NCBI GenBank assembly: GCA_963924885.1
Contig: CAWUUY010000107.1
Location: 7,302 to 71,301 of the forward strand
Reading direction: 5' to 3'
Origin: an uncultured Burkholderiales bacterium
GTDB taxonomy: Bacteria; Pseudomonadota; Gammaproteobacteria; Burkholderiales; SG8-41
DNA: 64,000 bases
Shown piece by piece: positions 648 to 48,244 of the stretch. The position numbers and the translations under genes are program-made. The notes beneath the pieces are model-generated. The model did not search any database and had not been told where the DNA came from. It saw only the letters and a program-made list of their open reading frames with translations. Position 1 is the first letter of the stretch; the number at the start of each line of letters is the position of its first letter.

Positions 648-998
648 ATGTCGCTTATTGATGTTATCCGTCACCTGAGTTCGGAACACGAAGTGCGTTT
701 TCTGCTGACCGCGTATGTCGAAACGCTGCAGTTCTATGATTCCGCAAAGCGCCTGCCGCCCGGTATCTGCGCGCTGCCGTTGAAAGATGCGGAAGATATC
801 GAAGCACGTTTCAACGAACTGCTCGGCGCGGAACTGTGCGGTCTTGCGCGCTCGCACTGCGACACGCAAGGCGCGATCGCGCGCGAGGCGACCGAAATTT
901 TTGGTGCGGCGTACACACGCTTGCAGACGCTGCGAGCGTCGGCAAAGCCACCTGCCGCGCGCGATGCCAACGTTGGCGTTTGCGGCGTAGTAATGTAA
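648..998 (+). CDS. hypothetical protein
   Basis: ORF 621..998. Probable start is ATG 648, preceded by GAGG. No recognisable motif. Confidence 0.4.
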   Translation: MSLIDVIRHLSSEHEVRFLLTAYVETLQFYDSAKRLPPGICALPLKDAEDIEARFNELLGAELCGLARSHCDTQGAIAREATEIFGAAYTRLQTLRASAKPPAARDANVGVCGVVM

Positions 999-1030
999 GT
1001 ATTTGTTTTTGTTGTGTTTTTTATAGAGCG
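996..1030 (+). repeat. AT-rich intergenic element, copy 1 (TAAGTATTTGTTTTT...TTATAGAGCG)
   Basis: First 15 nt are identical to the copies at 43995 and 48204. The tail TTATAGAGCGA resembles the copy at 29371-29400. Confidence 0.55.
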
Positions 1031-1327
1031 AAAAGTGGCTGTGGTGCTGGCCTGCGGCGCATGTTCAGGCGCCGTATCGCTGTCGCACCCGGCTTAATCT
1101 CGCGCGGTTGATGGCCGATGTGCGGCGTCTCCGCTGCATCGATCAAACAACCCAAAAACGCCGCACACACTTCCCTGCCCGCGTTGCGGAATCCGTTCGG
1201 CGGAGCAACGCAAGACACTGAATATATAGAACAAATGGCGCAATGCTGCTGTGGCGTGGCTCGCGGTACTTTGTTATACTGCGCGCCCTTGCACTAAAGC
1301 ACCAAATTACCAAAGCAATCCAAATCC

Positions 1328-1403
1328 GGGGACGTAGCTCAGCTGGGAGAGCGTCGCGTTCGCAATGCGAAGGTCGGGAGTTCGATCCTCCTCGTCTCCA
1401 CCA
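1328..1403 (+). tRNA. tRNA-Ala (anticodon CGC)
   Basis: Manual cloverleaf: acceptor GGGGACG/CGTCTCC with the G3:U70 Ala identity pair, D arm GCTC-AGCTGGGA-GAGC, anticodon loop TTCGCAA, T arm GGGAG-TTCGATC-CTCCT, encoded CCA. Confidence 0.95.
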
Positions 1404-1439
1404 AATGATAGTCCGGAGAAATCCAGTAGTATCTGAAAG

Positions 1440-1465
1440 AGCCCTAGTTACATAGGGCTTTTTCT
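1440..1465 (+). terminator. hairpin plus T-run after tRNA-Ala
   Basis: AGCCCTA-gttaca-TAGGGCT followed by TTTTTC. Confidence 0.6.
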
Positions 1466-1690
1466 TTTCTGGTATCCGTTGACGTCTAACCTAATCTTTT
1501 GAAATCCGGATCAACGTGGGGGCCACACTTGGGGCAACCCTCGGGATTCTTTAATGAGTTGGCCCCAAAATTCTTAAACTCTCACCGTAGTACGGTGTCA
1601 TAACACTATAACGTCGGGAGAAAAAATGCCGCTCAATGACATAGCGACAAAGGTAGGCTGCTCGAGGGAGGCTCGCTGCGGGCGCTCAAG

Positions 1691-45198: not shown

Positions 45199-46622
45199 TG
45201 ACAACCGAAGCATTCGACGTAGTCGTCGTAGGCGGTGGCATGGCCGGTCTTTCCGCCGCCAACCGCGCCGCGCAACAAGGCCTGAAAGTCGCCGTGCTTG
45301 AGCGTGGCGACGGCCCGCAATATCTGTGCAACTCGCGCTACTCCGGCGGCGTGCTGCACATCGCCATGCACAACGCCAAAGATCCCGCCGAGAAGCTGAT
45401 GGAGGTGATTAACAACGCCACCAGCGGCAAGGCCGACCCGGTGCTTGCGCGCGCGCTGGCCACCACGGCGGGTCGCGCCATCGACTGGCTGCAAAGCGAG
45501 GGCGCGAAATACATCCGCGTAGGCAACATCGTGTGGCAGCAACATGTGCTGGCGCCGCCGCGCCCCATCGTCGCGGGCCTAGACTGGAAAGGCCGCGGGC
45601 CGGATGTCACGTTACGGCAACTGGTGGCGAATCTGGAAAAACGTGGCGGCAAATTGATCCGCTTGCCCGCCTTGACGCTGATGGAAAAAGAAGGCCAGTG
45701 CATCGGTGTTGAAACCGGGGAAGGTGCGAACAAACAACAGTTCGAGGCACGCGCCGTGGTGCTCGCCGACGGCGGCTATCAGGGCAACCCCGCGCTGGTG
45801 CGCGAACACATGGGCATTGATTTCGCCAAGGTCAAAACACGCGGCGCGGGCACCGGCGTCGGCGACGGCATGCGCATGGCGCGCGCGATGGGCGCGCAAT
45901 TTTCCGAGCTCAAATATTTTTACGGGCACATGCTGTCGCGCGATTCATTCACCAATGACAAAGTCTGGCCGTATCCGCAGTTGGATGAACTCGGCACCGT
46001 GGGCCTGGTGGTGAACGACGCCGGCGAGCGCTTTGTCGATGAAGGGCTGGGCGGCGTGTTCGTCGCCAACACCATCGCGCGGCTGGCGAATCCTCTTTCA
46101 ACATGGGCAATTCTCGATCACGCGATTTGGGAAGGGCCAGGGCGCACCGCGCGCATCCCCGCCAACCCGCAATTGGCGAACGCGGGCGGCACCATCCACA
46201 AGGCGGCAACACTGGGCGAGCTGGCGATGATGACCGGCATCGACGTGGCTGGCCTCGAAGCCACCGTGGCTGCCTACAACAAAGCGCTCGCGTCCGCCGG
46301 TACCGCGAGCCCCATCGTGAGCCTCATGCCGCCGCGCAGCGCGCATCCCATCGTGCCCGCGCCCATCGCCAAGACGCCGTTTTACGCCGTGCCCTTGTGC
46401 GCGGGCATGACCTACACCTTTGGCGGCATTTTCACCGATGGCGATGGCCGCGTGATGAGCACGCGCGGCGCGCCGATTGAGGGGCTGTATGCCGTGGGCG
46501 CCACCACCGGCGGGCTGGAAGGCGGCACCGGCGGCGGCTATGTCGGCGGCCTCATCAAGGGCATCACGTTCGGCATGCTTGCGGCGGAGCATATCGCCCG
46601 GTGCGTGAAGGGTGAGGCGTGA
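45198..46622 (+). CDS. FAD-dependent oxidoreductase (fumarate reductase/succinate dehydrogenase flavoprotein-like)
   Basis: FDVVVVGGGMAGLSAA dinucleotide motif. C-terminal GLYAVG..TGG. ATAATG junction with the cupin gene. Confidence 0.8.
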   Translation: MTTEAFDVVVVGGGMAGLSAANRAAQQGLKVAVLERGDGPQYLCNSRYSGGVLHIAMHNAKDPAEKLMEVINNATSGKADPVLARALATTAGRAIDWLQSEGAKYIRVGNIVWQQHVLAPPRPIVAGLDWKGRGPDVTLRQLVANLEKRGGKLIRLPALTLMEKEGQCIGVETGEGANKQQFEARAVVLADGGYQGNPALVREHMGIDFAKVKTRGAGTGVGDGMRMARAMGAQFSELKYFYGHMLSRDSFTNDKVWPYPQLDELGTVGLVVNDAGERFVDEGLGGVFVANTIARLANPLSTWAILDHAIWEGPGRTARIPANPQLANAGGTIHKAATLGELAMMTGIDVAGLEATVAAYNKALASAGTASPIVSLMPPRSAHPIVPAPIAKTPFYAVPLCAGMTYTFGGIFTDGDGRVMSTRGAPIEGLYAVGATTGGLEGGTGGGYVGGLIKGITFGMLAAEHIARCVKGEA

Positions 46623-47575
46623 TACGTGATGCGGTAGTCCTTTTGTTGGCGGCGCTCTTTGCGAACACCGTGGCCGCTCAACCCTACCCCAACCGTCCGG
46701 TGCGCGTCATCGTGTCGGTGGCCGCCGGTGGCGGCACCGATACCGTGGGCCGTTCGCTGGCGCAAAAAATGAGCGAACGGCTCGGTCAGCAATTTGTCAT
46801 CGACAACCGGCCCGGTGGCGGCGGTAGCATCGCGGTGGAACTCACCGCGCGCGCCAATCCCGACGGTCACACGCTGCTGTTCTCATCCAGCACGTTCGTT
46901 ACCAACCAACTGCTCTACAAAGTGAATTACGACGCGTTGCGCGATCTGGCGCCCGTCAGCCTTGCGAGCGAAAATCCCTACGTAATCGCAGTCAATGCCA
47001 ACGTGCCGGCGAAAACATTACCCGCATTCATCGCACTGGCGAAAGCCAAGCCGCGCGGCTTTAACTATGCGTCGTCCGGCAAGGGCAGTCTGTTGCATCT
47101 GACGGCGGAACTGTTGAGTTCGGCGGCGGGGATCGAGATGACGCATATCCCGTACAAAGGCATGGCGCTGGCGTTCCCCGACATCATTTCAGGGCAGGTA
47201 CAGGTGGCGATATCCAGTGCGCTGACCATGCTGCCGCAATTACGCGGCGGGCGTGTGCACGCGCTGGGCGTCACCAGCCGCAAGCGCATGCCGGCACTCC
47301 CCGAGGTGCCCACCATAGAAGAAGCAGGCTTTACCGGCTTCGAGGTCACGCAGTGGTACGGCATGCTGGCCCCGGCGCAAACACCGCGCGGGCTGAGGCT
47401 GACAGTGCAACAGGAGATGGCGCGCGCCATGCAACAGCCCGACGTGCGCGCGCGGCTGACTGCGGAAGGCGCGGAGCCGGTGGGCAACACGCCCGACGAA
47501 TTTGCCGTGCGGCTCAAGGACGAATTCGCCAAGTGGGCGAAAACGATCAAGGCCGCGGGCATTAAGGGTGATTAA
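46619..47575 (+). CDS. Bug-family tripartite tricarboxylate transporter substrate-binding protein
   Basis: Signal peptide plus YPNRPVR.IV..AAGGGTD...R. GTGA overlap with the flavoprotein gene. Confidence 0.85.
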   Translation: MIRDAVVLLLAALFANTVAAQPYPNRPVRVIVSVAAGGGTDTVGRSLAQKMSERLGQQFVIDNRPGGGGSIAVELTARANPDGHTLLFSSSTFVTNQLLYKVNYDALRDLAPVSLASENPYVIAVNANVPAKTLPAFIALAKAKPRGFNYASSGKGSLLHLTAELLSSAAGIEMTHIPYKGMALAFPDIISGQVQVAISSALTMLPQLRGGRVHALGVTSRKRMPALPEVPTIEEAGFTGFEVTQWYGMLAPAQTPRGLRLTVQQEMARAMQQPDVRARLTAEGAEPVGNTPDEFAVRLKDEFAKWAKTIKAAGIKGD

Positions 47576-47579
47576 CGAG

Positions 47580-48089
47580 TTATTGCACCTTACCCAGAAA
47601 ATCCATCTTGCCGATTTCAACGCCACCGTGACGCAGCAGGTTGTACGACGTTGCGACGTGAAAATAAAAGTTCGGCAGCACCCACGAATTCAGGTAGTCG
47701 AGTCCCTTGAAGTTGAAGGTGTTAGCACCGGCGGTGATGGTAATCGCCTTGTCTTCGCTGCCGTCGATCTGCGCGGCAGTGAGAGTTTTCAGAAAATCTA
47801 TCGCTTTACGCACCCGCGCCTTGAGTTCCGGCAGGGTTTTCTCGTTGTCTTCAAACTTCGGAATGTCGATGCCGGCCAGCCGTGCGCCTGCGCCCTTGGA
47901 CATATCGGTGGCGATGCGGATTTGCCGCGCGAAGGTAAACATATCGGGAAACAGCCGCGCTTCGACGAAGGCCGAGTCTTCAATCTTGCGCGCGGCGACG
48001 TGGGCGATGGCTTTGTCGAGTATGGCTTCGAGGTTGCTCAGTGATTTAATCATTGGCGGAATCGAAGCGTTATACATGGAAATGTTCAT
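47580..48089 (-). CDS. DUF1993 domain protein
   Basis: MY.ASIP.....L.NL..IL.KA...............RL.PDMF...RQ....D pattern. ATG 48089 is preceded by AGGA. Confidence 0.75.
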   Translation of the reverse strand: MNISMYNASIPPMIKSLSNLEAILDKAIAHVAARKIEDSAFVEARLFPDMFTFARQIRIATDMSKGAGARLAGIDIPKFEDNEKTLPELKARVRKAIDFLKTLTAAQIDGSEDKAITITAGANTFNFKGLDYLNSWVLPNFYFHVATSYNLLRHGGVEIGKMDFLGKVQ

Positions 48090-48203
48090 GGTGATCCTGT
48101 GGGGTTGAGGTGACACTGGGTGATGTAACGCGGTTGAGCGGCGCCATTATATTCGTTACAGTGTGACTCTCCCATGACGCACAGCCTCTCTCGGGAATAA
48201 ACG

Positions 48204-48223
48204 TAAGTATTTGTTTTTAAACA
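48204..48223 (+). repeat. AT-rich intergenic element, copy 4 (TAAGTATTTGTTTTTAAACA)
   Basis: 20/20 identical to 43995-44014. It lies in the divergent DUF1993/acyl-CoA dehydrogenase promoter region. Confidence 0.7.
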
Positions 48224-48244
48224 CTATTTTAATTAAGGTGTGTT

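Follow-up and report, generated by a model that had tools for sequence, protein, structure and literature searches.

What is the short AT-rich sequence that recurs at the gene boundaries of an otherwise GC-rich, uncultured bacterium? The question is raised by a 64,000-nt stretch of DNA (the window) of ~60% GC and betaproteobacterial character, from an uncultured member of the Burkholderiales (lineage SG8-41; GenBank assembly GCA_963924885.1, contig CAWUUY010000107.1, positions 7,302 to 71,301 of the forward strand). A sequence-only reading of this window had picked out by eye an AT-rich element at gene boundaries in varied contexts, and had put forward three candidate roles for it: a binding site for a global or nucleoid-associated regulator, a miniature repeat family, or an AT-hairpin RNA. 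The computational follow-up reported here establishes that the element is genuine, being a dispersed AT-rich motif at gene boundaries that is conserved in a group of uncultured freshwater Burkholderiales. The family is apparently undescribed, a literature search for the motif sequence having returned no paper; dispersed intergenic repeats of protein-binding sites are themselves a kind of element already known. Among the three candidate roles the protein-binding site is favored, and we tentatively propose, at a probability of roughly 40%, that the copies constitute a dispersed family of sites for an architectural protein of the integration host factor (IHF) type, functionally like the RIB/RIP repeats of E. 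coli.

A dispersed motif in the window and in related genomes

An exact 20-mer, TAAGTATTTGTTTTTAAACA, occurs twice in the window (43995-44014 and 48204-48223, both on the + strand), in agreement with the 20/20 identity claimed for these two copies, and is never encountered in dinucleotide shuffles; its 3-mismatch relatives at 5948 (-) and 29374 are likewise without counterpart in such shuffles. The 16-nt left core of the element, TAAGTATTTGTTTTTA, has six window sites at ≤2 mismatches, whereas 500 composition-preserving shuffles applied to the AT-rich islands of the window yield 0.008 on average and never more than 1. A hidden Markov model (HMM) of the family places six window sites at E<0.02 (48193, 43985, 22708, 5948, 986 and 29372; Table 1). 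The copies recognized by eye at 996, 5950 and 29381 are thereby confirmed, the last as a degenerate one, and two that had been overlooked are added, at the surA start and in dacB. Four weaker variants that had been proposed at 35050, 2168, 54205 and 61138 were found neither by the family HMM at E<10 nor at ≤3 mismatches, and the stretch at 35050 shows no conservation in the orthologous mrcA-pilM spacer of locus L118.

The motif extends well beyond the window. A scan of species-representative genomes with a 19-mer of the element returned at least 115 loci, per-genome counts being lower bounds, with the exact 19-mer at no fewer than 113 sites in at least 111 GC-rich loci. The listed loci belong mostly to about two dozen metagenome-assembled genomes (MAGs) of uncultured Betaproteobacteria/Burkholderiales from lakes and glacier-fed streams, and a single MAG contributes at least 16-17 of them. 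When 786 kb, comprising the listed 19-mer loci, the window and loci L118 and L120, were searched with the 16-mer, 84 further matches outside the exact 19-mer sites were recovered (13, 30, 25 and 16 at 0, 1, 2 and 3 mismatches), versus 0, 0, 3 and 7 for the reversed 16-mer. The exact 19-mers therefore represent the tail of a degenerate family resembling the output of a position weight matrix. Degenerate copies occur at a density of ~1 per 7-10 kb in the 786 kb, in the window and in six loci fetched through hemL alone; for an assumed genome size of ~3-4 Mb, this density would correspond to ~300-400 degenerate copies per genome. The exact 19-mer is also present outside the main clade in Zoogloea spp. 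(L026, L045 and L079), in a long AT-rich region conserved among the three genomes (...actactaaatgtagtagaaaaaaa...), where it may be a true member or a coincidence.

Anatomy of the element

The constrained unit spans ~27 bp within an AT-rich island of ~36 bp and reads yrTAAGTATTTGTTTTTA, followed by 4-5 variable bases and a T-tract (TTTTTT). The 68 members that were not chosen by their right half yield the pattern y-r-T-A-A-(G/C)-T-A-T-T-T-G-(T/A)-T-T-T-T-A, then 4-5 weakly conserved bases and a T-run at positions 21-26. The unit is bipartite, with high information at positions 0-15, low information at 16-20, high information again at 21-26 and none further out; position 3 is the most variable core position among 66 degenerate copies. 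A 40-mer representing the element is AATAAACGTAAGTATTTGTTTTTAAACACTATTTTAATTA. Past the ~36-nt unit the flanks are unrelated GC-rich sequence, with no conservation beyond about +27.

This anatomy revises two details of the sequence-only reading. The palindrome TTGTTT..AAACAA had been taken as the core, and the constraint is instead shifted, residing in the left 16-mer plus the downstream T-tract: positions 16-19 are TTGA in 20 of the 68 members and AACA in 10, the rest carrying other bases, and because TTGA outnumbers AACA after the core, the palindrome is a minority subtype. Outside the 19-mer sites, the 786 kb contain 13 exact matches to the left 16-mer, as against 3 to the palindromic 14-mer. 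Likewise, the tail TTATAGAGCGA said to be common to the copies at 996 and 29381 is not a family feature, lying where the flanks are unconserved; at 29381 it corresponds to the final hemL codons (A-L-stop) read in reverse complement. The 11-nt identity itself (996-1034 versus 29361-29400) falls at 1020 in non-coding DNA and is probably due to chance.

The AT-hairpin RNA could be rejected. Predicted RNA folds of four copies range from -1.1 to -3.6 kcal/mol (z +0.7 to -1.8), no better than those of shuffled sequences, and the commonest subtype is devoid of the palindrome. A comparison with Rfam identified no relevant family at the copies, returning only tRNA and anti-hemB at the gathering score over the whole window, and no relevant match at E≤1 over 43900-48300.

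Table 1. Members of the motif family in the window, with the subtype named after the bases at positions 16-19 where assigned
Assignment	Positions	Strand	Core or exact match	HMM score	Location
Family member	986..1027	+	core 996-1011, TAAGTATTTGTTTTTG, 1 mismatch	12.8 bits, E=0.007	ORF 621-998 ends on its TAA (996-998); tRNA-Ala ~300 nt downstream
Family member	5938..5975	-	5948-5967, GAAGTATTTGTTTTTAAATG; core 5952-5967, GAAGTATTTGTTTTTA, 1 mismatch		divergent spacer between a 61-aa ORF (5710-5895, -) and umuD (6125-6574), within a tRNA-linked island
Probable member	22708..22738	+	core 22711-22726, TAACTATATGTTTTTA, 2 mismatches	13.8 bits	surA probably begins at its ATG (22718-22720), so that the first SurA signal-peptide residues (MFLK...) are encoded by the element
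Degenerate member, 1-nt deletion (HMM and sequence reading)	29372..29404	-			occupies the 36-nt spacer of convergent hemL (stop 29374-29376) and cytochrome c4 (29413-30066, -)
Consensus member, AACA subtype	43985..44023	+	exact 20-mer 43995-44014	28.5 bits	between the stop of an arylmalonate-decarboxylase-like gene (44022-44756, -) and a TctC/Bug start (ATG 43981, -); 5' UTR of the TctC/Bug gene, out of frame with it
Consensus member, AACA subtype	48193..48232	+	exact 20-mer 48204-48223	32.4 bits	divergent spacer between DUF1993 (47580-48116, -) and an acyl-CoA dehydrogenase gene (ATG 48245); 21 nt upstream of this ATG, with Shine-Dalgarno AAGGTG in between
TTGA-subtype member	62554..62590	-	core 62565-62580, TATCTATTTGTTTTTA, then TTGATATTTTTG		within the codons for the dacB/PBP4 signal peptide (...IIYLFLLIFLCGAAHA, then QLPPP), just past the stop codon of an aminotransferase gene (62611-63930, -)

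Conservation at orthologous positions

Conservation at orthologous positions, which had been proposed as a check on the element, is observed at the 3' end of hemL, where a copy is present in 7/7 genomes (HemL identity 80-100%, GC 57-65%) in constant orientation. In the six relatives this copy has the same placement and orientation and is better preserved than in the window, and it is kept in L126 despite a different downstream neighbor. Among the seven genomes, the AACA, TTGA and other subtypes replace one another at this single locus. At the surA start, element-like sequence is kept in L118, L120, L124 and L125. Other orthologous sites grade from exact through variant to decayed or absent, the differences being substitutions or small internal indels. 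No clean insertion polymorphism was found among syntenic loci, the three "absent" cases being decayed, partial or replaced spacers, which argues against transposition. Read from the sequences, this pattern of evolution favors site-specific selection with some turnover, and drive by point mutation would look similar. The copy upstream of the acyl-CoA dehydrogenase gene was also compared with L120, but the proteins are only 29% identical and not orthologous, and the comparison was set aside as uninformative.

Position and orientation relative to genes

Context was classified with crude GC3-based gene calls for the 95 listed exact copies that have a called gene on both sides. Co-directional genes flank 42 copies in one orientation and 30 in the other, 16 copies lie in divergent spacers and 7 in convergent ones. 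No orientation bias relative to genes emerged, the two co-directional orientations not differing significantly (binomial p=0.19), and the occurrence of both between co-directional genes argues for action at the level of DNA rather than via the transcript. Stop codons adjoin the element at 0-16 nt, and the TAA within TAAGTA doubles as the stop codon in several loci and at position 996 of the window. A gene leads away on at least one side in 93% of copies. As many as 104 Pfam families are represented among the 118 genes leading away, including ribosomal protein S13, ribonucleotide reductase, citrate synthase, aldo-keto reductases and many TctC receptors (27/118, against a TctC background of ~1 per 9 kb in these loci); with neighbors this diverse, the copies do not define a regulon. 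Not one of the 113 listed exact copies is convincingly internal to ordinary coding sequence.

The coding sequence that the element does enter is of a particular kind. For ~25-30 of the 113 listed exact copies, the adjacent gene takes its first seven codons in frame from the reverse strand, (A/G/T)TG TTT AAA AAC AAA TAC TTA, or MFKNKYL, after which a hydrophobic core and a signal-peptidase site follow. The genes fused in this way are mostly those of TctC/Bug receptors and lipoproteins. Just outside the element, 11/34 fused copies have a good Shine-Dalgarno (SD) sequence, versus 2/79 unfused ones, so that the unfused copies are not hidden small ORFs. Since 63 of the 85 Bug genes in these loci have unrelated N-termini, MFKNKYL is an overlay and not a trait of the Bug family. 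The opposite orientation can also be read as a signal-peptide start or hydrophobic core, in dacB and surA of the window and in L018, L101 and L115. The codons TTT, AAA and TTA are atypical of a genome with ~75% GC at third codon positions, which points to a constraint on the DNA, signal-peptide starts being apparently the sole coding sequence that tolerates it.

Several observations accompany these fusions. The identical string ATG TTT AAA AAC AAA TAC TTA opens otherwise unrelated secreted proteins (Bug receptors, lipoproteins and YNCE-like propellers), the loci with such starts including L002, L007, L010, L029, L037, L043, L050, L077, L089, L092 and L093, and gene callers may place these starts inconsistently. 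In L040 and L082 (aldo-keto reductase), L087 and L038, a gene starts directly after the element without an SD sequence, and a seven-codon mini-ORF, xTG..TTA, terminates in a TGA or TAA that shares bases with the ATG (TTATGA, TAATG), as is typical of translational coupling.

A candidate IHF-type architectural site

The element is orientation-independent, asymmetric, ~27-36 bp long, degenerate yet highly specified and present in a few hundred copies without a regulon, a combination from which we infer a docking site for an abundant DNA-binding protein. A regulator or nucleoid-associated site is thus preferred over the other two roles because there is no orientation bias and no regulon, degeneracy is of the weight-matrix type, orthologous positions are conserved and the layout resembles that of an IHF site. 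On its reverse strand the unit consists of an A-tract of 6, N8, AAACAA or AATCAA, N4 and TTA, an order that, judged by sequence, is the four-part layout of a strong IHF site, the AA steps between the other three parts forming the fourth. IHF sites cover ~34-35 bp and contain WATCAA, a TTR 4 bp downstream of it and an A-tract of 4-6 in the 5' half, and E. coli has ~300 of them (PMC1874591, PMC8421141).

The correspondence can be followed position by position. The TTA lies at the spacing of the IHF TTR, and position 0, which is T in 93 and C in 4 of 97 copies, is equivalent to R on the other strand; among the 66 degenerate copies it is T or C in 65. Positions 1-2 are nearly invariant, and position 3, the most variable core position of the degenerate copies, is an N in the IHF layout. 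Read from the opposite strand, the T-run at 21-26 becomes an A-tract separated from the core by 8 nt. The consensus AAACAA agrees with WATCAA at 5/6 positions, and T10 to A, one of the two commonest core variants (12/66 degenerate copies, 14/68 unbiased members), converts it to a perfect AATCAA. Across the hemL site of the seven genomes, the TTR and WA-CAA positions have changed in 1/56 cells compared with 6/28 for the N4 (Fisher p=0.005, post hoc). The IHF 13-mer is matched with ≤1 mismatch by 159/164 element matches. Canonical sites with this layout are of the phage lambda H' type, and the reverse strand was likened to the H' sequence. When consensuses for Fis, CRP, FNR, Fur, LexA, ArgR, Lrp, PhoB, sigma-54, H-NS, parS, DnaA, DUS, USS and Ter, among others, were set against that of the element, only IHF, UP and the low-information patterns GTA-N8-TAC and LysR came within 1-2 mismatches.

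Several points weigh against an IHF-type site. In AT-rich DNA the IHF 13-mer is weak evidence, for other AT-rich islands in the same loci also match it at ≤1 mismatch, in 97/435 cases (22%), and the family consensus itself carries one IHF mismatch (AAACAA rather than AATCAA). The motif holds ~30 bits or more, roughly twice the ~11-14 bits that specify ~350 sites, and positions 4, 5 and 13-15, not normally read by IHF, are also conserved; this excess of information may therefore reflect a second constraint or bound factor, shared ancestry or drive. In about one quarter of the listed exact copies the element runs over a start codon, always in the same frame, which a purely architectural site does not predict. 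Lastly, the data had been inspected before the Fisher test was applied and before the element was aligned to the IHF layout.

If the IHF-type reading is correct, an abundant architectural protein, most likely IHF, would bind and sharply bend the DNA at gene boundaries, and the sites would act as structural or insulating points between transcription units, like RIB/RIP at the 3' ends of E. coli operons. In a compact, GC-rich genome the 36-bp AT island often fills the whole spacer, and at times it spills into a signal-peptide start, where it supplies the codons for MFKNKYL or, in the other orientation, M/L-FLN... The RIB/RIP repeats are IHF-binding repeats in BIME-1 (bacterial interspersed mosaic element 1) at the 3' ends of E. 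coli transcription units, according to the account of Boccard & Prentki 1993 given in PMC2817692. Like them, the present element is dispersed, high-copy and intergenic, often stands right after stop codons in either orientation, has the IHF layout, and would presumably serve an architectural or insulating role rather than the control of particular genes. In contrast to RIB/RIP, it is without flanking inverted repetitive extragenic palindromic (REP) sequences, its flanks past 36 nt being unrelated and GC-rich; it is entirely AT-rich in a 60% GC genome, belongs to a different order (uncultured Burkholderiales) and sometimes lies over start codons, and whereas RIB/RIP bind IHF, the IHF site here is predicted by layout. 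With canonical IHF sites the element shares the order and spacing of the four parts, a similar total extent, the concentration of substitutions on unspecified positions and a copy number of the same order, but differs in that the AAACAA mismatch is the norm and many positions unspecified by IHF are conserved.

Alternative explanations

The excess information would be accounted for if the motif were a self-recognition sequence of the DNA-uptake type, kept by molecular drive (biased uptake plus recombination) and not by a function at each locus. It would then build up wherever an AT-only 20-30-mer can be tolerated. Such a self-propagating clade signature, whether a signal for uptake or recombination or some other driven sequence, would have been co-opted time and again for the start codons and the charged n-region (MFKNKYL) of signal peptides in unrelated secreted proteins. 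We consider this explanation unlikely, although several observations suit it: exact 19-mers occupy non-homologous loci in many species, orientation is neutral, orthologous sites pass from exact to degenerate to absent by point change and not insertion (L023/L009/L044, L065/L019), the only coding positions occupied are signal-peptide starts, the most tolerant ones, in both orientations, and type IV pilus genes (pilMNOPQ) lie in the window. As in the DNA uptake sequences (DUS) of Neisseriaceae and the uptake signal sequences (USS) of Pasteurellaceae, a highly specified asymmetric core is set in AT-rich flanks, orientation is neutral, subtypes exist across related species and, within coding sequence, only tolerant positions are used. 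However, Neisseria DUS and Haemophilus USS occur about once per kb, a density roughly ten-fold higher than the ~1 per 7-10 kb found here; the listed copies are near-absent from ordinary coding sequence though three of the six reading frames through the element are open; and known uptake cores have 9-12 nt versus 16 or more in this case. Perfect cores dominate among USS, whereas here they are a minority, rarer than copies with 1 or 2 mismatches (13 versus 30 and 25). The stability of the hemL site in seven genomes, moreover, looks like locus-specific selection. Somewhat less probable still is a role in the transcript, as an unstructured AU-rich leader or spacer for SD-independent or coupled initiation, for S1 or Hfq binding, or as an RNase E site. 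It would suit the predicted lack of RNA structure and the fact that about one third of the listed exact copies contribute their reverse strand to a translation start region, comprising the ~25-30 fused xTG-TTT-AAA-AAC-AAA-TAC-TTA starts, 11 of 34 of them with a good SD just upstream, and ~10 more with an ATG 0-5 nt past ACTT and no SD (e.g., the aldo-keto reductases of L040 and L082). Against it, the two orientations between co-directional genes give two unrelated transcript sequences, copies also occupy convergent spacers, including that at the hemL 3' end, unfused copies mostly lack an SD and are thus not hidden small ORFs, and a generic AU-rich function does not call for 16 or more specified bases.

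A selfish short mobile repeat, either REP-like and spread by a REP-associated tyrosine transposase (RAYT) or a minimal miniature inverted-repeat transposable element or solo inverted-repeat end, is improbable. As a description, the miniature repeat family of the sequence-only reading holds: like REPs (PMC2817692), the element is 30-40 bp long, intergenic and high-copy, frequently adjoins stop codons and occurs in both orientations, and its excess information is typical of repeats of common ancestry. With REP/BIME elements and their RAYTs it shares the size of 20-40 bp, the copy number, the intergenic position and the specificity for a species group. As a mechanism it finds no counterpart in the data, since the 97 aligned copies have neither inverted ends nor target duplications, flanks are unrelated right up to the 36-nt unit, orthologues differ by substitutions and small internal indels rather than by clean presence or absence, and 2.9 million viral contigs contain only 3 matches. 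REPs are defined by a GC-rich imperfect palindrome behind a 5' GT(A/G)G head (PMC2817692); the head of the element reads (y)(r)TAAG and there is no GC-rich stem, while the weak AT stem TGTTT/AAACA, in which no compensating changes are seen, is missing from the commonest subtype. A promoter, UP element or intrinsic terminator, for which AT-rich DNA at the gene boundaries of a GC-rich genome, agreement with 12/14 specified positions of the UP consensus and the 93% of copies with a gene leading away might speak, is very improbable and already largely refuted. The earlier judgment that the element is neither a classic promoter nor a GC-stem terminator stands: none of the promoter-like or terminator-like sites around 43995 and 48204 coincides with the element, there is no GC stem and the folds are weak, and orientation is independent of the downstream gene. 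Pairs of -35/-10 boxes plus a UP element fitted by hand in both directions failed in each case, with start codons 0-30 nt away or inside and no conserved -35. These starts are too close to leave space for a transcription start and leader, which excludes the element as promoter of the adjacent gene. The lowest probability is assigned to an operator for a CRP/FNR-like dimeric transcription factor built on the palindrome TTGTT-N4-AACAA. The AACA subtype differs from the FNR box TTGAT-N4-ATCAA at just two symmetric positions, yet the subtype distribution contradicts such an operator, for the commonest subtype has TTGA in place of the right half-site, conservation is strongly asymmetric as the counts for the 16-mer and the palindromic 14-mer indicate, and the neighboring genes lack functional coherence.

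Other features of the window

The window includes TctC/Bug genes, an anti-hemB small RNA (sRNA) and the syntenic series lptD-surA-pdxA-rsmA...thiDE-hemL...hemB...mrcA-pilMNOPQ. The TctC/Bug gene downstream of the copy at 43995 (43013-43981, -) has an in-frame stop at codon 239 (...PDIPTTV*AGLPGF...) and is a pseudogene or the product of an assembly error. Two further core matches at 3 mismatches lie at 58804-58819 (-) and 16924-16939 (-). The former overlaps the start of ubiD and is probably a coincidence, its KY..LRDF residues being typical of UbiD N-termini; the latter sits in an AT-rich island.

An apparent integrated island (1328-9300, GC 54-58%) adjoins tRNA-Ala(CGC) (1328-1403) and carries the gene for a TOTE conflict-system archaeo-eukaryotic primase (4539-5735) and a umuD-umuC pair (6125-6574 and 6525-7838), with a perfect LexA box, CTGTTCTTATATACAG, at 6101-6116 just 5' of umuD. 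The Burkholderia anti-hemB sRNA matches Rfam at 30797-30897 (-) with 61.5 bits (gathering score 49.5), directly 5' of hemB (30988-32001).

Implications

The motif is highly specified, intergenic and common to a clade of uncultured freshwater and glacier-stream Burkholderiales, and could be used as a taxonomic marker for binning the contigs of this clade. Its overlap with signal-peptide starts illustrates how a constraint at the DNA level can shape protein N-termini, and serves as a warning for gene callers applied to these MAGs. If the sites are of the IHF type, they would constitute a second independent case of dispersed IHF-binding repeats at operon ends, and would offer a natural map of the points of chromosome architecture in organisms that have not yet been grown.

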